Shown piece by piece: positions 1 to 14,370 of a DNA stretch of 64,000 nt. Both the position numbers and the translations under genes were made by a program. Source of the DNA: Escherichia coli 042. Its GTDB lineage: Bacteria > Pseudomonadota > Gammaproteobacteria > Enterobacterales > Enterobacteriaceae. Position 1 is the first letter of the stretch. Each line of letters starts with the position of its first letter. A model generated the notes under the pieces. The model searched no databases. It was given only the letters and a program-made list of their open reading frames with translations, and was not told the origin of the DNA. The stretch lies in NCBI RefSeq assembly GCF_000027125.1, contig NC_017626.1, one strand, 5' to 3'.

Positions 1-1390
1 GCGCGGTGGCAAAATCATTCCCTATAAAAAATTGCTCGACGATGCGATAAGTCAGGCGCAGCACCAGCCACGCCATGTTTTGCTGGTGGATCGCGGGCTG
101 GCGAAAATGGCACGCGTCAGCGGGCGGGATGTCGATTTCGCGTCGTTGCGCCATCAACACATCGGCGCGCGGGTACCGGTGGCGTGGCTGGAATCCAACG
201 AAACCTCCTGCATTCTCTACACCTCCGGCACGACCGGCAAACCTAAAGGCGTGCAGCGTGACGTTGGCGGATATGCGGTGGCGCTGGCGACCTCGATGGA
301 CACCATTTTTGGCGGCAAAGCGGGCGGTGTGTTCTTTTGTGCTTCGGATATCGGCTGGGTGGTGGGGCATTCGTATATCGTCTACGCGCCGCTGCTGGCG
401 GGGATGGCGACTATCGTTTACGAAGGATTACCGACCTGGCCGGACTGCGGCGTGTGGTGGAAAATCGTCGAGAAATATCAGGTTAGCCGGATGTTCTCAG
501 CGCCGACCGCCATTCGCGTGCTGAAAAAATTCCCTACCGCTGAAATTCGCAAACACGATCTCTCGTCGCTGGAAGTGCTCTATCTGGCTGGAGAACCGCT
601 GGACGAGCCGACCGCCAGTTGGGTGAGCAATACGCTGGATGTGCCAGTGATCGACAATTACTGGCAGACCGAATCCGGCTGGCCGATTATGGCGATTGCT
701 CGCGGTCTGGACGACAGGCCGACGCGTCTGGGTAGCCCCGGCGTGCCGATGTATGGCTATAACGTGCAGTTGCTTAATGAAGTCACCGGCGAACCGTGTG
801 GCGTCAACGAGAAAGGGATGCTGGTGGTGGAAGGGCCATTGCCGCCGGGGTGTATTCAGACCATTTGGGGCGACGACGACCGCTTTGTGAAGACGTACTG
901 GTCGCTGTTTTCCCGTCCGGTGTACGCCACTTTTGACTGGGGTATCCGCGATGCTGACGGTTATCACTTTATTCTCGGGCGCACTGACGATGTGATTAAC
1001 GTTGCCGGGCATCGGCTGGGGACGCGCGAGATTGAAGAGAGTATCTCCAGTCATCCGGGCGTTGCCGAAGTGGCGGTGGTTGGGGTGAAAGATGCGCTGA
1101 AAGGGCAGGTGGCGGTGGCGTTTGTCATTCCGAAAGAGAGCGACAGTCTGGAAGACCGTGAGGTGGCGCACTCGCAAGAGAAGGCGATTATGGCGCTGGT
1201 GGACAGCCAGATTGGCAACTTTGGCCGCCCGGCGCACGTCTGGTTTGTCTCGCAATTGCCGAAAACGCGATCCGGAAAAATGCTGCGCCGCACGATCCAG
1301 GCGATTTGCGAAGGACGCGATCCTGGGGATCTGACGACCATTGATGATCCTGCGTCGTTGGATCAGATCCGCCAGGCGATGGAAGAGTAA
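1..1390 (+). CDS. prpE: Propionyl-CoA synthetase, C-terminal part (5' end lies outside the window)
   Basis: ORF 32..1390 translates to an acyl-CoA synthetase (YTSGTTGKPKG AMP-binding motif), open to the window edge; position upstream of codBA. Confidence 0.9.
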   Translation, partial: RGGKIIPYKKLLDDAISQAQHQPRHVLLVDRGLAKMARVSGRDVDFASLRHQHIGARVPVAWLESNETSCILYTSGTTGKPKGVQRDVGGYAVALATSMDTIFGGKAGGVFFCASDIGWVVGHSYIVYAPLLAGMATIVYEGLPTWPDCGVWWKIVEKYQVSRMFSAPTAIRVLKKFPTAEIRKHDLSSLEVLYLAGEPLDEPTASWVSNTLDVPVIDNYWQTESGWPIMAIARGLDDRPTRLGSPGVPMYGYNVQLLNEVTGEPCGVNEKGMLVVEGPLPPGCIQTIWGDDDRFVKTYWSLFSRPVYATFDWGIRDADGYHFILGRTDDVINVAGHRLGTREIEESISSHPGVAEVAVVGVKDALKGQVAVAFVIPKESDSLEDREVAHSQEKAIMALVDSQIGNFGRPAHVWFVSQLPKTRSGKMLRRTIQAICEGRDPGDLTTIDDPASLDQIRQAMEE

Positions 1391-1395
1391 GGTAT

Positions 1396-1864
1396 TGTCG
1401 GATGCGTCGTGTGGCGCATCCGACACCGTGCGCCGATGCCTGATGCGACGCTGACGCGTCTTATCATGCCTACAGGCCTGAACCGTAGGTCGGATAAGGC
1501 GCTCGCGCCGCATCCGACACCGTGCGCCGATGCCTGATGCGACGCTGACGCGTCTTATCATGCCTACAGGCCTGAACCGTAGGTCGGATAAGGCGCTCGC
1601 GCCGCATCCGACACCGTGCGCCGATGCCTGATGCGACGCTGGCGCGTCTTATCATGCCTACAGGTCTGAACCGTAGGTCGGATAAGGCGCTCGCGCCGCA
1701 TCCGACACCGTGCGCAGATGCCTGATACGACGCTGGCGCGTCTTATCATGCCTACAGGCCTGAACCGTAGGTCGGATAAGGCGCTCGCGCCGCATCCGAC
1801 ACCGTGCGCAGATGCCTGATGCGACGCTGACGCGTCTTATCATGCCCACAGGCCTGAACCGTGG
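1396..1864. repeat. Tandem array of about 5 copies of a 94-bp REP/BIME palindromic unit
   Basis: gcatccgac recurs at 1416, 1510, 1604, 1698 and 1792 (period 94); gcctgatgcgacgc...gcgtcttatcatgcctacag recurs with the same period; a few SNPs between units. Confidence 0.9.
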
Positions 1865-1999: not shown

Positions 2000-3259
2000 G
2001 TGTCGCAAGATAACAACTTTAGCCAGGGGCCAGTCCCGCAGTCGGCGCGGAAAGGGGTATTGGCATTGACGTTCGTCATGCTGGGATTAACCTTCTTTTC
2101 CGCCAGTATGTGGACCGGCGGCACTCTCGGAACCGGTCTTAGCTATCATGATTTCTTCCTCGCAGTCCTCATCGGTAATCTTCTCCTCGGTATTTACACT
2201 TCATTTCTTGGTTACATTGGCGCAAAAACCGGCCTGACCACCCATCTTCTTGCTCGCTTCTCGTTTGGTGTTAAAGGCTCATGGCTGCCTTCACTGCTGC
2301 TGGGGGGTACCCAGGTTGGCTGGTTTGGCGTTGGCGTGGCGATGTTTGCCATTCCGGTGGGTAAGGCAACCGGGCTGGATATTAATTTGCTGATTGCCGT
2401 TTCCGGTTTACTGATGACCGTCACCGTCTTCTTTGGCATTTCGGCGCTGACGGTTCTTTCGGTGATTGCGGTTCCGGCTATCGCCTGTCTTGGCGGTTAT
2501 TCCGTGTGGCTGGCCGTTAACGGCATGGGCGGCCTGGACGCATTAAAAGCGGTCGTTCCTGCACAACCGCTAGATTTCAATGTCGCGCTGGCGCTGGTTG
2601 TGGGGTCATTTATCAGCGCGGGTACGCTCACCGCTGACTTTGTCCGGTTTGGTCGCAATGCCAAACTGGCGGTGCTGGTGGCGATGGTGGCCTTTTTCCT
2701 TGGCAACTCGTTGATGTTTATTTTCGGTGCAGCGGGAGCGGCGGCACTGGGCATGGCAGATATCTCTGATGTGATGATTGCTCAGGGCCTGCTGCTACCC
2801 GCGATTGTGGTGCTGGGGCTGAATATCTGGACCACCAACGATAACGCGCTCTATGCGTCGGGCTTAGGTTTCGCCAACATTACCGGTATGTCGAGCAAAA
2901 CCCTTTCGGTGATTAACGGTATTATCGGTACGGTCTGCGCACTATGGCTGTATAACAATTTTGTCGGCTGGCTGACCTTCCTTTCGGCAGCTATTCCTCC
3001 GGTAGGGGGCGTGATCATCGCCGACTATCTGATGAACCGTCGCCGCTATGAGCACTTTGCGACCACGCGTATGATGAGTGTCAATTGGGTGGCGATTCTG
3101 GCGGTCGCCTTGGGGATTGCCGCAGGCCACTGGTTACCGGGAATTGTTCCGGTCAACGCGGTATTAGGTGGCGCGCTGAGCTATCTGATCCTTAACCCGA
3201 TTTTGAATCGTAAAACGACAGCAGCAATGACGCATGTGGAGGCTAACAGTGTCGAATAA
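2000..3259 (+). CDS. codB: Cytosine permease
   Basis: 419-aa multi-pass membrane protein, GTG start, immediately upstream of and overlapping codA. Confidence 0.93.
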
Positions 3260-4532
3260 CGCTTTACAAACAATTATTAACGCCCGGTTACCCGGCAAAG
3301 AGGGGCTGTGGCAGATTCATCTGCAGGACGGAAAAATCAGCGCCATTGATGCGCAATCTGGTGTGATGCCCGTAACTGAAAACAGCCTGGATGCCGAACA
3401 AGGTTTAGTTTTACCGCCGTTTGTGGAGCCGCATATTCACCTGGACACCACGCAAACCGCCGGGCAACCGAACTGGAATCAGTCCGGCACGCTGTTTGAA
3501 GGCATTGAACGCTGGGCCGAGCGCAAAGCGTTATTAACCCATGACGATGTGAAACAACGCGCATGGCAAACGCTGAAATGGCAGATTGCCAACGGCATTC
3601 AGCATGTGCGTACCCATGTCGATGTTTCCGACGCAACGCTGACTGCGTTGAAAGCGATGCTGGAAGTGAAACAGGAAGTTGCGCCGTGGATTGATCTGCA
3701 AATCGTCGCCTTCCCGCAGGAAGGGATTTTGTCGTATCCCAACGGTGAAGCGTTGCTGGAAGAGGCGCTACGCTTAGGAGCAGACGTTGTTGGGGCGATT
3801 CCGCATTTTGAATTTACCCGTGAATATGGCGTGGAGTCGCTGCATAAAACCTTCGCCCTGGCGCAAAAATACGACCGTCTCATCGACGTTCACTGTGATG
3901 AGATCGATGATGAGCAGTCGCGCTTTGTCGAAACCGTTGCCGCCCTGGCGCACCGTGAAGGAATGGGCGCACGAGTCACCGCCAGCCATACTACGGCAAT
4001 GCACTCCTATAACGGGGCGTATACCTCACGCCTGTTCCGCCTGCTGAAAATGTCCGGTATTAACTTTGTCGCCAACCCGTTGGTCAATATTCATCTACAA
4101 GGGCGTTTCGATACGTATCCAAAACGTCGCGGCATCACGCGCGTTAAAGAGATGCTGGAGTCAGGCATTAACGTCTGCTTTGGTCACGATGATGTCTTCG
4201 ATCCGTGGTATCCGCTGGGAACGGCGAATATGCTGCAAGTGCTGCATATGGGGCTGCATGTTTGCCAGCTGATGGGCTACGGGCAGATTAACGACGGCCT
4301 GAATTTAATCACCCACCACAGCGCCAGGACGTTGAATTTGCAGGATTACGGCATTGCCGCCGGAAACAGCGCCAACCTGATTATCCTGCCGGCTGAAAAT
4401 GGATTTGATGCGCTGCGCCGTCAGGTTCCGGTACGTTATTCGGTACGTGGCGGCAAGGTGATTGCCAGCACACAACCGGCACAAACCACCGTATATCTGG
4501 AGCAGCCAGAAGCCATCGATTACAAACGGTGA
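3249..4532 (+). CDS. codA: Cytosine deaminase
   Basis: Translation [16 protein letters not shown]...[11 protein letters not shown] matches CodA; GTG start at 3249 chosen inside the longer ORF 3234..4532. Confidence 0.93.
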
Positions 4533-4570
4533 TCGGCTGGGCTGTGTGTTGACAAAGCGAGCGTAGTTTA

Positions 4571-4651
4571 TGCCGGATGCGGCGTGAACGCCTTATCCGG
4601 CCTACGTAGAGCACTGAACTCGTAGGCCTGATAAGCGTAGCGCATCAGGCA
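4571..4651. repeat. REP palindromic elements (pair)
   Basis: gccggatgcggcgtgaacgccttatccggcctacg and cgtaggcctgataagcgtagcgcatcaggc between codA and cynR. Confidence 0.85.
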
Positions 4652-4664
4652 ATTGTGTCAGTGG

Positions 4665-5564
4665 TTACCGCGATTCATTCCCGCCAACAACCGCGCATTT
4701 ATCCAACGCCATTTGCAAAAATGCCTTCGCGGCGGCTGTCTGCCAGCTATTTTTCCGCCGCAACAAAACCGCCGTTCTCTTCAGTAGTGGTGGGGCAAGA
4801 GAAATAGCTTTAAGCCCTTCATGTTGTGTGGCAATCGCTGCTGGCAACAATGTGGAAAGGGAAGTGCGGCGAATCAGCTCCAGAACCGCGCTAATTGAGT
4901 TCGCCTCAATGACCACCTGTGGATGTAGCCCCGCTTTCTCGCAGTAGTGGTCAATTTGCTCTCTGGTGGCAAATTCCGCGCTGAGCAGGACCAGTTTTTC
5001 ATCATGCAAGCGACTCAACGCCACCTGTTCACAGGCAGCCAGCGGATGATGTTGCGCCACGACTAACGCTAAACTTTCTGTCAGTAAAGGAATTGCCTCC
5101 AGCTCCGGCGAATGCACAGGCGCGAAGGCAATCCCAACGTCCAACTCGTCGCGACAAAGCAGATCTTCGATTTTCTCCTGCGACATTTCCTGTAGCTGGA
5201 GCGTGATGCCGGGGTAGCGCGCATAGAAACCCGCCATTAAAGGGCCGATAAAGTAGCTTGTAAAGGTGGGAGTGACGGCGATACGCAGCGATCCTCGCGT
5301 CAGATCGGCAACATCATGAATCGCCCGTTTACCCGCCCCGAGTTCCTGTAACGCCCGGCTGGCGTACTGTCGCCAGACTTCTCCTGCATCAGTGAGACGA
5401 ATCGTTCGCCCGCTACGGTCAAACAGCGGCACGCCTAAACTCTCCTCTAACTGGCGAATCTGCTGGGAAAGCGCAGGCTGGGAGACGTGCAACACACTGG
5501 CGGCACGGGTGAAGCTGCCATGTTCAGCCACGGCAAGAAAATAATTGATATGTCGAGAGAGCAT
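4665..5564 (-). CDS. cynR: LysR-family regulator of the cyn operon
   Basis: Translation [22 protein letters not shown] (HTH) with LysR substrate domain; divergent from cynT; start taken at the internal Met of ORF 4665..5588. Confidence 0.9.
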
Positions 5565-5673
5565 TCGCCAACCTATAAGTAAATCCAATAGAACTCATCA
5601 TAAATGAGTCTTTTACCTTATGACAATCGGCGAGTAGTCTGCCTCTCATTCCAGAGACAGACAGAGGTTAACG

Positions 5674-6333
5674 GTGAAAGAGATTATTGATGGATTCCTT
5701 AAATTCCAGCGCGAGGCATTTCCGAAGCGGGAAGCCTTGTTTAAACAGCTGGCGACACAGCAAAGCCCGCGCACCCTTTTTATCTCCTGCTCCGACAGCC
5801 GTCTGGTCCCTGAGCTGGTGACGCAACGTGAACCTGGCGATCTGTTCGTTATTCGCAACGCGGGCAATATCGTCCCTTCCTACGGGCCAGAACCCGGTGG
5901 CGTTTCTGCTTCGGTGGAGTACGCCGTCGCTGCGCTTCGGGTATCTGACATTGTGATTTGCGGTCATTCCAACTGTGGCGCAATGACCGCTATTGCCAGC
6001 TGCCAGTGCATGGACCATATGCCTGCCGTCTCTCACTGGCTGCGTTATGCCGATTCTGCCCGCGTCGTTAATGAGGCGCGCCCGCATCGTGATTTACCGT
6101 CAAAAGCTGCGGCGATGGTGCGTGAAAACGTGATTGCTCAGTTGGCTAATCTGCAAACGCATCCATCGGTGCGCCTGGCGCTCGAAGAGGGGCGGATCGC
6201 CCTGCACGGCTGGGTCTACGACATTGAAAGCGGCAGCATCGCAGCTTTTGACGGCGCAACCCGCCAGTTTGTGCCACTGGCCGCTAATCCTCGCGTTTGT
6301 GCCATACCGCTACGCCAACCGACCGCAGCGTAA
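5674..6333 (+). CDS. cynT: Carbonic anhydrase
   Basis: 219-aa beta-class carbonic anhydrase (CSDSR, HSNCG motifs). Confidence 0.92.
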
Positions 6334-6345
6334 CCTTATTTTTAA

Positions 6346-6834
<489 letters not shown>

Positions 6835-6866
6835 CAACCATGCGCGACCATCAAAAGACGTTCACG

Positions 6867-8021
6867 ATGCTGCTGGTTCTGGTGCTGATTGGTCTTAATA
6901 TGCGACCACTGCTCACCTCCGTCGGACCACTGCTACCGCAATTGCGTCAGGCGAGTGGAATGAGCTTTAGCGTGGCAGCCCTGTTGACCGCTCTGCCGGT
7001 GGTTACCATGGGCGGGCTGGCGCTGGCCGGAAGCTGGCTTCATCAGCATGTCAGCGAACGTCGCAGCGTCGCCATCAGTTTGTTACTGATTGCCGTCGGT
7101 GCATTGATGCGTGAGCTTTACCCCCAAAGTGCGCTGCTGCTTAGCAGCGCACTGCTTGGTGGAGTGGGGATCGGCATCATTCAGGCAGTGATGCCTTCGG
7201 TAATTAAGCGGCGGTTTCAGCACCGTACGCCACTGGTGATGGGGCTGTGGTCCGCGGCTCTGATGGGCGGCGGTGGACTTGGTGCCGCCATTACGCCCTG
7301 GTTAGTTCAACATAGCGAAACCTGGTATCAAACACTCGCCTGGTGGGCGCTGCCTGCCGTTGTTGCGCTCTTTGCCTGGTGGTGGCAAAGCGCCCGCGAG
7401 GTCGCCTCTTCTCACAAGACAACAACCACTCCGGTTCGCGTGGTATTTACTCCCCGCGCCTGGACGCTGGGTGTTTACTTCGGTCTGATTAACGGCGGTT
7501 ACGCCAGCCTGATTGCCTGGTTACCCGCTTTCTATATTGAGATTGGTGCCAGCGCGCAGTACAGCGGTTCCTTGCTGGCATTGATGACGCTTGGGCAAGC
7601 AGCAGGGGCATTGCTGATGCCTGCTATGGCTCGCCATCAGGATCGGCGCAAACTTTTGATGCTGGCGCTGGCGTTACAACTGGTGGGGTTCTGCGGCTTT
7701 ATCTGGCTGCCGCTGCAATTGCCGGTATTGTGGGCAATGGTGTGCGGATTAGGTCTGGGCGGCGCATTTCCGCTCTGTTTGCTGCTGGCGCTCGATCACT
7801 CTGCGCAACCGGCTATTGCTGGCAAACTGGTGGCGTTTATGCAGGGGATCGGTTTTATCATCGCCGGGCTTGCTCCCTGGTTTTCTGGCGTGCTGCGTAG
7901 TATCAGTGGCAATTACTTGATGGACTGGGCGTTTCATGCGCTGTGCGTCGTTGGGCTGATGATCATAACCCTGCGTTTTGCACCAGCACGTTTTCCGCAG
8001 CTGTGGGTCAAAGAGGCATGA
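6867..8021 (+). CDS. cynX: Cyanate MFS transporter
   Basis: 384-aa multi-pass membrane protein from the internal ATG at 6867 of ORF 6840..8021. Confidence 0.9.
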   Translation: MLLVLVLIGLNMRPLLTSVGPLLPQLRQASGMSFSVAALLTALPVVTMGGLALAGSWLHQHVSERRSVAISLLLIAVGALMRELYPQSALLLSSALLGGVGIGIIQAVMPSVIKRRFQHRTPLVMGLWSAALMGGGGLGAAITPWLVQHSETWYQTLAWWALPAVVALFAWWWQSAREVASSHKTTTTPVRVVFTPRAWTLGVYFGLINGGYASLIAWLPAFYIEIGASAQYSGSLLALMTLGQAAGALLMPAMARHQDRRKLLMLALALQLVGFCGFIWLPLQLPVLWAMVCGLGLGGAFPLCLLLALDHSAQPAIAGKLVAFMQGIGFIIAGLAPWFSGVLRSISGNYLMDWAFHALCVVGLMIITLRFAPARFPQLWVKEA

Positions 8022-8059
8022 TGCGACGCTTGTTTCGCCAGATAATGGAAGAGTGAATT

Positions 8060-8092
8060 ATTGTCGGATGTGCCCAATGGCGCATCCGACAT
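8060..8092. repeat. REP-like hairpin downstream of cynX
   Basis: gtcggatg ... catccgac inverted repeat; sequence closely resembles the first unit after prpE. Confidence 0.7.
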
Positions 8093-8108
8093 TTATTTCA
8101 GTGCTTAT

Positions 8109-8720
8109 TTAAACTGAAGGCTCAACTTTATAATCTTTGTAATAATAGTGCTTATCCCGGTCGTTTATTTCGCGAATAACCCGACAAGGAACGCCAGCAG
8201 CCACGACGTTTGGTGGAATGTCTTTTATGACGACACTACCCGCGCCAATAACAGAATTATCCCCGATGGTGACGCCTGGATTAATGACCACATGACTTCC
8301 GATCCAGACGTTATTGCCAATCGTTATCGGAAAAGAGTACATCTCACCGTTTTTTCTTAATTCATGGTGTACCGGGTGTCCCGTAACGGAAAGAGTAACG
8401 TTGGGTGCAATCAGTACGTTATCACCGATTGTTACCGTGTAGTCATCGACAATGGTTAAATTAAAATTTGCATAAAAATTGCGGCCTATATGGATGTTGG
8501 AACCGTAAGAGAAATAGACGGGAGGTTCTACCCAGGCGTTTTCCCCTACCGTGGCAAACATTTCTTTAATCAGGCTTTCTCTTTTTTCAACTTCTGATGG
8601 ATGCGAGTGATTAAACTCATACATTAACGTTTTCCCACGAAGTCTTTTTTCCGGTAAGCCTTCGCACATATCGGTAAATAGCTTGCCTGCTTTTATTCTT
8701 TCGGTCATTGGCATGTTCAT
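8109..8720 (-). CDS. lacA: Galactoside O-acetyltransferase
   Basis: Translation MNMPMTERIKAGKLFTDMCEGLPEKRLRGK, hexapeptide-repeat fold; the longer ORF to 8771 is an artefact of reading through a REP element. Confidence 0.93.
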   Translation of the reverse strand: MNMPMTERIKAGKLFTDMCEGLPEKRLRGKTLMYEFNHSHPSEVEKRESLIKEMFATVGENAWVEPPVYFSYGSNIHIGRNFYANFNLTIVDDYTVTIGDNVLIAPNVTLSVTGHPVHHELRKNGEMYSFPITIGNNVWIGSHVVINPGVTIGDNSVIGAGSVVIKDIPPNVVAAGVPCRVIREINDRDKHYYYKDYKVEPSV

Positions 8721-8745
8721 TGCGATCATTCCGTTATGATATGTT

Positions 8746-8777
8746 GGTCGGATAAGGCGCTCGCGCCGCATCCGACA
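8746..8777. repeat. REP element between lacY and lacA
   Basis: ggtcggataaggcgctcgcgccgcatccgaca. Confidence 0.85.
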
Positions 8778-8785
8778 TTGATTGC

Positions 8786-10084
<1,299 letters not shown>

Positions 10085-10090
10085 TTATTA

Positions 10091-13203
<3,113 letters not shown>

Positions 13204-13295: not shown

Positions 13296-14370
13296 CGCTT
13301 TCGAGTCGGGAAATTTGTCGCGCCAGCTGCATTAAAGAATCTGCCAACGCCTGGGGAGAAGCGGTTTGCGTATTGGGCGGAAGGGTGGTTTTTCTTTTCA
13401 CCAGTGAGACGGGCAACAGCTGATTGCCCTTCACCGCCTGGCCCTGAGAGAGTTGCAGCAAGCGGTCCACGCTGGTTTGCCCCAGCAGGCGAAAATCCTG
13501 TTTGATGGTGGTTAACGGCGGGATATAACACGAGCTGTCTTCGGTATCGTCGTATCCCACTACCGAGATATCCGCACCAACGCACAGCCCGGACTCGGTA
13601 ATGGCGCGCATTGCGCCCAGCGCCATCTGATCGTTGGCAACCAGCATCGCAGTGGGGACGATGCCCTCATTCAGCATTTGCATGGTTTGTTGAAAACCGG
13701 ACATGGCACTCCAGTCGCCTTCCCGTTCTGCTATCGGCTGAATTTGATTGCGAGTGAGATATTTATGCCAGCCCGCCAGACGCAGACGCGCCGAGACAGA
13801 ACTTAATGGGCCCGCTAACAGCGCGATTTGCTGGTGACCCAATGCGACCAGATGCTCCACGCCCAGTCGCGTACCGTCTTCATGGGAGAAAATAATACTG
13901 TTGATGGGAGTCTGGTCAGAGACATCAAGAAATAACGCCGGAACATTAGCGCAGGCAGCTTCCACAGCAATGGCATCCTGGTCATCCAGCGGATAGTTAA
14001 TGATCAGCCCACTGACGCGTTGCGCGAGAAGATTGTGCACCGCCGCTTTACAGGCTTCGACGCCGCTTCGTTCTACCATCGACACCACCACGCTGGCACC
14101 CAGTTGATCAGCGCGAGATTTAATCGCCGCGACAATTTGCGACGGCGCGTGCAGGGCCAGACTGGAAGTGGCAACGCCAATCAGCAACGACTGTTTGCCC
14201 GCCAGTTGTTGTGCCACGCGGTTGGGAATGTAATTCAGCTCCGCCATCGCCGCTTCCACTTTTTCCCGCGTTTTCGCAGAAACGTGGCTGGCCTGGTTCA
14301 CCACGCGGGAAACGGTCTGATAAGAGACACCGGCATACTCTGCGACATCGTATAGCGTTACTGGTTTCAC
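13288..14370 (-). CDS. lacI: Lactose repressor
   Basis: Translation VKPVTLYDVAEYAGVSYQTVSRVVNQASHVSAKTREKVEAAM...RLESGQ; GTG start at 14370. Confidence 0.96.
   Translation of the reverse strand: MKPVTLYDVAEYAGVSYQTVSRVVNQASHVSAKTREKVEAAMAELNYIPNRVAQQLAGKQSLLIGVATSSLALHAPSQIVAAIKSRADQLGASVVVSMVERSGVEACKAAVHNLLAQRVSGLIINYPLDDQDAIAVEAACANVPALFLDVSDQTPINSIIFSHEDGTRLGVEHLVALGHQQIALLAGPLSSVSARLRLAGWHKYLTRNQIQPIAEREGDWSAMSGFQQTMQMLNEGIVPTAMLVANDQMALGAMRAITESGLCVGADISVVGYDDTEDSSCYIPPLTTIKQDFRLLGQTSVDRLLQLSQGQAVKGNQLLPVSLVKRKTTLPPNTQTASPQALADSLMQLARQISRLESGQ

Follow-up and report, generated by a model that had tools for sequence, protein, structure and literature searches.

A prpE gene end and its REP-derived hairpin copied between cynX and lacA in Escherichia coli 042

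The REP elements of Escherichia coli occur as y, z1 and z2 types, which are combined in the composite repeats BIME-1 and BIME-2 (Bachellier et al.; PMC3333891). Recognition by TnpA-REP needs a 5' GTAG and a two-nucleotide mismatch within the stem, and removal of the mismatch abolishes both binding and cleavage (Ton-Hoang et al., 2012; PMC3333891). REPs also act on the transcripts that carry them: as summarised in PMC12306157, REPs lying no more than 15 nt from a stop codon hold up terminating ribosomes and reduce expression (Liang et al., 2015). Here we describe two hairpins with y-REP arms in the interval between prpE and the lac genes of E. coli 042, each preceded by the same stretch of coding-derived DNA. 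The window analysed is a 64-kb stretch (64,000 nucleotides) of contig NC_017626.1, and its relevant features are collected in Table 1. Box 1 is formed by the end of prpE together with the hairpin behind it, and box 2 lies in the 87-nt spacer between cynX and lacA. The prpE gene is the source of the shared sequence and box 2 is the copy.

Table 1. Features of the prpE-lacZ interval, in window positions.
Feature	Position	Strand	Evidence
prpE, 3' part	32-1390	+	ORF
Box 1 flank, last six prpE codons and stop (R Q A M E E stop)	1370-1390	+	ORF 32-1390, translation
Box 1 hairpin, derived from a y-type REP; 13-bp stem, 4-nt loop	1396-1425		palindrome search, RNA fold
BIME-2 array between prpE and codB, 4.8 copies of a 94-bp unit (y REP + z2 REP)	1415-1862	+	TRF; repeat families D1-D3
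codB	2000-3259
codA	3234-4532
BIME-1 between codA and cynR (y REP, linker, z1 REP)	~4570-4651		sequence
cynR	4665-5588	-
cynT/S/X, convergent with lacA	5674-8021
Half z2-type REP head over the cynX stop codon, 17/19 against the array z2 head	8012-8030	+	repeat family D3
Box 2 flank, prpE tail in copy (R Q I M E E stop if translated)	8036-8056	+	repeat finder, pattern search, translation
Box 2 hairpin; 13-bp stem, 4-nt loop, then TTTATTT on the + strand	8062-8091		terminator-like site, RNA folds
Right arm of box 2 hairpin and spacer to just before the lacA stop, direct repeat with 8767-8788	8081-8107	+	local alignment
lacA	8109-8720	-
y-type REP in the lacA-lacY spacer, 97% identity to y REPs of the BIME-2 array	8743-8777	+	repeat family D2
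lacY	8786-10039	-
lacZ	10091-13165	-

The two boxes and their hairpins

Box 1 (1370-1425) and box 2 (8036-8091) are each 56 nt long and identical at 45 positions (80%), and the repeat finder reports them as a two-copy family with a spacing of 6666 bp. Both parts of the box contribute to this: the flank agrees at 20 of 26 positions (binomial P ~4e-8) and the hairpin at 25 of 30. When the flank alone was used as a pattern (CGCCAGNNNATGGAAGAGTRA, up to three mismatches), it matched twice in the window, both times at a box, against 0.06 matches expected from shuffles. Because identity falls to the chance level of 6/30 in the 30 nt upstream and again in the 30 nt downstream, the edges of the box are sharp. 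The repeat is thus genuine, and the agreement in its non-REP part far exceeds chance. The conserved box that the first-pass annotation had pointed out is confirmed in both places and in no other part of the window, with small shifts in its limits: the start given for box 1, 1371, was off by one base, and the limits given for box 2, 8032-8092, were off by up to four. Chance or convergence could appeal to the shortness of the match and has no other support; the flank identity and the shuffle counts rule it out, the stop codon is constant in position among the box 2 variants, and we give this explanation practically no weight. Searches of the literature found this box nowhere described.

In box 1 the flank is in the prpE frame and supplies the end of the protein (IRQAMEE, then stop). 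Five bases separate the stop codon from a 30-nt hairpin (TGTCGGATGCGTC-GTGT-GGCGCATCCGACA, 13 pairs) that folds at -27.1 kcal/mol (z -3.2), has no T run and is followed by ccgtgcgcc. The right arm of the hairpin keeps the register of the first BIME-2 unit, and the array varies in copy number between strains. In strain EC958 a canonical y REP occupies the place of this hairpin and its GTAG overlaps the TAG stop of prpE, and in a divergent genome labelled E. coli (L008) a z2 REP comes first at the corresponding position.

Box 2 lies past the cynX stop codon and out of frame with it, and is therefore non-coding; read in the prpE register it gives RQIMEE and a stop. Three variants were found among its carriers, RQIMEE-tga, RQMMEE-taa (Ec-U3) and RQMMEL-taa (FORC_041), with the position of the stop codon constant. 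To its left, the z2 half-head over the cynX stop is a constant neighbour, whether the allele is box 2 or the BIME-1 copy described below, and comparison with Yokenella shows that the part of this segment through ...gaggcNtgat is native cynX. In box 2 carriers the alignment to a chimeric query begins exactly at CGCCAG, so that the first-pass suggestion of a piece of the prpE 3' end copied along with the element is borne out by a non-coding copy starting at that point. The right edge of box 2 coincides with a REP tail (GCGCATC...). The 11 nt beyond it (tttatttcagt) match neither the right flank of box 1 nor the BIME-1 allele, and their first five, tttat, also follow the hairpin in E. albertii. 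The box 2 loop region, GTGCCCARTGG, is unlike that of every prpE-context hairpin seen, E. albertii included. Homologues of CynX were also followed as a lead to the donor of the prpE tail; they gave no clue, the CynX C-terminus being native in the comparison with Yokenella.

The arms of the hairpins, TGTCGGATGCG and CGCATCCGACA, are y-REP ends and match the ends of the y REPs in the array (GTAGGTCGGATAAGGCG...CGCATCCGACA), and both hairpins are extragenic. Two hallmarks of a TnpA-REP substrate are absent in the window. First, GTAG does not adjoin either stem, the bases in its place being GTAAGGTAT before box 1 and GTGAATTAT before box 2; the K-12 and E. albertii alleles do contain GTAG, but 6 nt from the stem. 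Second, the 13 pairs of each hairpin, one of them G-U, follow one another without interruption, so that the two-base stem mismatch is missing. The boxes also do not resemble a target-site duplication, being 56 bp long and only 80% identical, and the intervening 6.6 kb (codBA, cynR-cynTSX) contains no transposase ORF.

The hairpins may be functional. Box 2 folds at -28.5 kcal/mol (z -6.0) on the + strand and at -22.2 kcal/mol (z -4.5) on the - strand; on the + strand its 13 pairs, eight of them GC, close a loop of 4 and run directly into a T-rich tail (TTTATTTCAG), as in an intrinsic terminator. Together with its TTTATTT it is the sole terminator-like site in the cynX-lacA spacer. Its most likely predicted roles are as an intrinsic terminator for cynTSX and as a 3' stem-loop, or stabiliser, of the convergent lac transcript; in K-12 the z1 REP of BIME-1 would presumably end cyn and cap lac instead. 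The box 1 hairpin begins 5 nt past the prpE stop, within the 15 nt reported for stop-proximal REPs, which makes prpE a candidate for the same kind of control. By analogy with these REPs, the most likely role of the hairpin would be to stabilise the 3' end of the prpE mRNA and to damp prpE translation. Retention of the 13-pair stem in both boxes, despite differing apical bases, is compatible with selection on structure.

Native prpE codons and a two-locus distribution

The first-pass annotation had offered as one reading that a REP-type element brought in, or overlaps, the C-terminal codons of prpE. Comparison of prpE 3' ends argues against this. Before the stop codon, the protein ends in RQAMGE in E. 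albertii, in RQALEN in Herbaspirillum, and in RQAIEE (5/6) or RLAIEE (1/6) in six Citrobacter genomes, and in each case the DNA downstream is unrelated. Several Citrobacter genomes keep cgccaggcgatNgaggagtaR and then continue into quite different DNA. The native codons of the prpE end can be written CGC CAG GCG ATN GAR GAG TAR, and the flank is thus ancestral prpE coding sequence. Because the codons persist in E. albertii, Citrobacter and Herbaspirillum next to unrelated downstream DNA, no REP brought them in; what overlap there is between REP and gene amounts at most to the stop codon coinciding with a REP GTAG in some strains, as in EC958. Close relatives among the matches listed were E. coli, E. 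albertii and Citrobacter only, with E. fergusonii, E. marmotae, E. ruysiae and E. whittamii absent from them.

With a box 2 query of 71 nt, the 5,426 complete E. coli genomes showed a median of one matching place each and at most three. Among the matches listed, and leaving out the genomes with three places, all E. coli places fell in the cynX-lac spacer or at the prpE end. Metagenome contigs scanned with the flank and hairpin head gave 65 matches on 63 contigs, 64 of them behind prpE or cynX, and no third context was found on these contigs apart from the remaining match. That match lies on a short, thinly covered contig (L092; 1.4 kb, 1.3x coverage) with unrelated flanks and is probably chimeric. 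With the window and the genome loci added, and truncated or indel-bearing copies dropped, the tally is 51 copies behind prpE and 15 behind cynX. The two groups form distinct lineages separated by seven fixed differences, with a mean of 12.7/56 differences between groups and means of 3.8 and 5.3 within them. A box 1 and a box 2 sequence are 8-17 differences apart over the 56 positions, against 2-8 between box 1 alleles, E. albertii included, so that the copy must be old, fast-evolving or derived from an unsampled source.

These counts bear on the idea, also raised in the first-pass annotation, that the box belongs to a REP subfamily with a conserved flank. Such a subfamily, or a mobile REP-like unit with a conserved 5' flank, would have inserted at both sites, and the prpE codons would be derived from the element. 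The y-REP-like arms and the REP-rich spacers in which both copies sit speak for it, but the box occupies just two loci across the genomes and the metagenome contigs, its flank is conserved prpE coding sequence in genera that lack the hairpin, and the hairpins in the window lack the GTAG and the two-nucleotide mismatch needed by TnpA-REP (PMC3333891). The two-locus distribution refutes the subfamily, and we regard it as very unlikely.

Junction alleles and the origin of box 2

Gene order in relatives indicates what the region looked like before codBA and cyn were present. The six Citrobacter genomes have prpD-prpE pointing straight at lacZ, with one exception in which it points at lacY-lacZ. 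Behind lacZ comes lacI in four of them, and the only locus long enough to show it has mhpR further on. In E. albertii prpE and lacZ are likewise directly convergent, with stop codons 36 nt apart and a spacer that is essentially the box 1 hairpin, and an E. albertii-like metagenome contig has the same prpE-hairpin-lacZ arrangement. The nearest relative of CynX outside E. coli (83% identity) is in Yokenella, where cynR-cynTSX occupies an unrelated locus. Because Citrobacter and E. albertii keep prpE and lac adjacent and Yokenella has cyn elsewhere, codBA and the cyn genes are later insertions into a junction at which prpE and lac originally converged. What E. coli has in addition is exactly enclosed by the two boxes.

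Natural E. coli strains differ in the cynX-lacA spacer of the classic lac region, for which at least four structural forms exist, and the K-12 version does not hold for all strains. Of the 5,426 genomes, 611 have the arrangement of the window, cynX-box 2-lacA, and 532 have cynX-box 2-lacY with lacA missing (FORC_041, O111:H8 and others), so that box 2 is carried by ~1,143, about a fifth. In ~3,100 genomes, including K-12 and O157, a partly deleted copy of the codA-cynR BIME-1 stands between cynX and lacA; these strains thus carry in the place of box 2 a second copy of a repeat that the window has once. Finally, ~1,170 genomes, B2 strains such as EC958 among them, have no cyn genes and belong to the junction type codA-BIME-1-lacA; in EC958 one BIME-1 joins codA to lacA.

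REPs are reportedly crossover sites for duplications and deletions, a result ascribed to Shyamala et al. in 1990. The lacA-less junction of the FORC_041 type is such a case, namely a recombinant of 8081-8107 with 8767-8788, the tail of the lacY-lacA y REP and its flank; the two segments align locally as CGCATCCGACATTTATTTCAGTGCTTA and CGCATCCGACATTGAT-----TGCTTA. About 10% of complete E. coli genomes are without lacA through deletion at a REP tail.

The divergent genome L008 is ~92% identical across the region and has codBA without cyn and without box 2. A z1-REP/'atttt'/lacA junction is common to this genome, to K-12-type E. coli and to B2 strains, and BIME-1 beside lacA is therefore probably the older state, a reading of ancestry drawn from one outgroup genome and B2. 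These comparisons suggest that box 2 is younger than the codBA insertion.

We therefore somewhat favour a later ectopic copy as the origin of box 2. The cyn module would have inserted with a duplication of BIME-1 before box 2 existed, and box 2 would most likely have arisen once, within E. coli, after the module was in place. By template switching, gene conversion or illegitimate recombination, the 56-bp end of prpE would have been copied ectopically, with the right end guided by homology between REP tails (GCGCATC-CGACA and GCGCATC-AGGCA) and the left end joined just after cynX without real homology. We infer that the copy replaced the distal BIME-1 beside lacA, the allele now seen in K-12, O157 and the divergent Escherichia outgroup. 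Two observations count against a later ectopic copy: the boxes differ from each other more than box 1 alleles do, and the right flank tttatttcagt matches neither candidate parent. No intermediate allele or donor for box 2 was found.

An unlikely but substantial alternative derives box 2 from the ancestral junction itself, as a relic of the time when prpE and lac converged with only the hairpin between them. Homology-facilitated illegitimate recombination or a resolved tandem duplication could, for instance, have doubled the 56-bp end of prpE when the 6.6-kb block (BIME-2 array, codBA, cynR-cynTSX) was inserted, leaving one copy on prpE and stranding the other by lac. The convergent prpE and lacZ of E. 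albertii, of the E. albertii-like contig and of the six Citrobacter genomes, the exact bracketing of the extra DNA by the boxes and the unrelated cyn locus of Yokenella are all in keeping with a relic, and the deep divergence between the boxes fits an old event. The tttat that E. albertii and box 2 share behind the hairpin fits as well, but the match spans just 5 nt, and any terminator should have a T-rich tail. The junction alleles count against a relic, for L008 and B2 strains have codBA but lack both cyn and box 2, and at BIME-1/lacA they share an orthologous junction with K-12; the relic would then need a later replacement of box 2 by BIME-1 as well as repeated cyn deletions. Recombination between the two boxes should moreover yield a direct prpE-box-lacA junction, and the chimeric query found this in none of the 5,426 E. 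coli genomes.

Two further routes deserve mention. Box 2 could have arrived on a short patch of foreign DNA from an E. albertii-like donor that had the prpE hairpin next to lac, with an illegitimate join behind cynX. The depth of the box divergence and the E. albertii-like tttat would suit an import. The distinctive box 2 loop, however, has no counterpart behind prpE in any genome seen, E. albertii included, and the scan of metagenome contigs for a donor lineage returned no authentic prpE followed by a hairpin of the box 2 type. The surroundings are likewise native: the genes from prpE to lacZ in the window are uniformly 96.4-98.7% identical to K-12, an ordinary level for the genes on either side of box 2 (96-99%), and the 3' end of lacA beside box 2 has the haplotype of E. 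coli B2 strains. Import together with lacA was rejected on the same grounds, there being no sign of a foreign patch. Given the K-12-like flanks, the B2 haplotype of lacA and the lack of a donor-type prpE in metagenomes, we consider a foreign patch quite improbable. Slightly less doubtful, though still improbable, is that box 2 is the footprint of REP-hairpin copying that started in one REP tail, ran through the hairpin, overshot by 26 nt into unique upstream DNA and then switched back. If so, box 2 would record a rare and datable case of REP dissemination by template switching or imprecise RAYT-type strand transfer instead of clean excision and insertion.

Comparison with known systems

Box 2 is a strain-variable scar of local rearrangement in a REP-bounded patchwork, a known kind of event and not a new repeat family. 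It has no bearing on a major open question. Its value is as a clean, well-bounded case in which REP/BIME repeats make the interval from prpE to lacY a patchwork, with the cynR-TSX and lacA blocks coming and going, and in which the copying of a hairpin can take a piece of a coding gene with it.

Among described systems, the E. coli REPs and BIMEs are the closest, sharing with the boxes the y-REP arms, the extragenic position and the placement at gene 3' ends. The box 1 hairpin in addition fills the y-REP slot of the first BIME-2 unit, where EC958 has the canonical element. The boxes differ from REPs in their perfect stem, in the lack of an adjacent GTAG in the window and in the occurrence of this exact form at two loci only, and they add 26 nt of unique, coding-derived flank that REPs do not carry. 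The one Rfam family found here is naRNA4 (RF02564, gathering threshold 59.5 bits), and it is confined to the array beside box 1: the array units score 70-72 bits, above gathering, whereas the first unit with the box 1 hairpin (1396-1470) scores 49.9 and box 2 has no match.

Intrinsic bidirectional terminators share with box 2 the GC-rich 13-bp stem, the 4-nt loop, the TTTATTT on the cyn strand and an AT-rich flank on the lac strand. The lac-strand tail, AAUAAUU, is poor in U by comparison.

As at the join-points of REP-mediated rearrangements, the codBA, cynR-TSX and lacA blocks are each bounded by REP or BIME copies, and the natural variants break within these repeats, the cyn-less B2 type in BIME-1 and the lacA-less FORC_041 type in a REP tail. 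The left edge of box 2 departs from this pattern, lying inside prpE coding sequence and not in a REP, so that one end of the event that formed it was illegitimate. Box 2 finally resembles the gene-end relics that insertions or homology-facilitated illegitimate recombination leave behind, in that a gene's 3' terminus is present a second time, as a short non-coding duplicate on the far side of DNA that is additional to that of related genera; it differs from them in that population and outgroup data suggest a copy younger than the codBA insertion.

Presence and absence of the cyn module

The entire cynR-cynTSX module is polymorphic, being present or absent by strain. Among 5,426 complete E. coli genomes, about 1,170 are without it, B2 strain EC958 being one of them, and it is also missing from a divergent genome labelled E. 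coli (L008, about 92% identity across the region). A single BIME-1 (y REP, linker and z1 REP) links codA to lacA in genomes without the module; K-12-type strains carry two copies, one at each side of it. The codA-cynR spacer of K-12 MG1655 also contains a tandem duplication of a segment comprising BIME-1 and the cynR 3′ end (97% identity), which is lacking in the window strain.

Coordinates of the features described in this part
Feature	Sequence	Position
BIME-2 array, four full units	window	1488-1846
cynR-cynTSX module	window	4665-8021
z2 REP head match (17/19)	window	8012-8030
12-codon ORF	window	8020-8056
tttatttcagt (11 nt)	window	8092-8102
Direct repeat flanking lacA (22-27 nt)	window	8081-8107 and 8767-8788
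Tandem duplication (200 bp)	K-12 MG1655 (L001)	6477-6875
lacY/cynX-box 2 junction	lacA-less locus (L002)	470-560
Single BIME-1, codA to lacA	B2-type locus without cyn (L007)	8190-8380
Single BIME-1, codA to lacA	divergent genome (L008)	13520-13720
prpE-lacZ junction	E. albertii NBRC 107761 (L009)	8937-8978
Native cynX end	Yokenella (L151)	7180-7200

The cynX 3′ end and box 2

A match to the z2 REP head encloses the cynX stop codon. Because the native cynX end in Yokenella reads ...gaggccTGAt, the right end of the cyn module seems to have been fused to a z2 REP via the microhomology gcNtgat; this microhomology and TGCC|TGAT, the type I cleavage motif of TnpA-REP, overlap.

A small candidate ORF, MMRRLFRQIMEE, begins at an ATGATG that overlaps the cynX stop and terminates at the prpE stop copied in box 2, the non-coding copy of the prpE end in the cynX-lacA spacer; in K-12 the same start yields MMRRLFLRFVHAGCG before a stop. 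The 12-codon ORF is probably not expressed. Between the box 2 hairpin and gcttatttaaac, a sequence common to the window and B2 strains, lies tttatttcagt, which matches neither the box 1 right flank nor the BIME-1 allele; it could represent filler at the junction or a short duplicated stretch (ttattt...ttattt). The sole box copy with both flanks unrelated occurs on a metagenome contig of 1,387 nt (L092), which has very low coverage (1.3x) and is most likely an assembly chimera.

Variation at lacA, the BIME-2 array and the E. albertii locus

The direct repeat that flanks lacA is composed of REP tail and spacer. No lacA at all is found in 532 complete genomes (FORC_041, O111:H8 and others), and in lacA-less genomes the lacY 3′ end is joined to cynX-box 2 exactly at this repeat. 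The prpE-codB BIME-2 array varies widely in copy number between strains, and its four full units in the window match Rfam naRNA4 (RF02564), a nucleoid-associated RNA, at 70-72 bits, exceeding the gathering score.

In E. albertii NBRC 107761 only 36 nt separate the prpE and lacZ stop codons, with no lacY, lacA, codBA or cyn in the interval. Next to lacZ, homologues of lacI and mhpR were likewise not detected. The LacZ C-terminus encoded there (...YQVSWR-stop) resembles that of Citrobacter (...RVSWG-stop), unlike that of E. coli (...QLVWCQK-stop).
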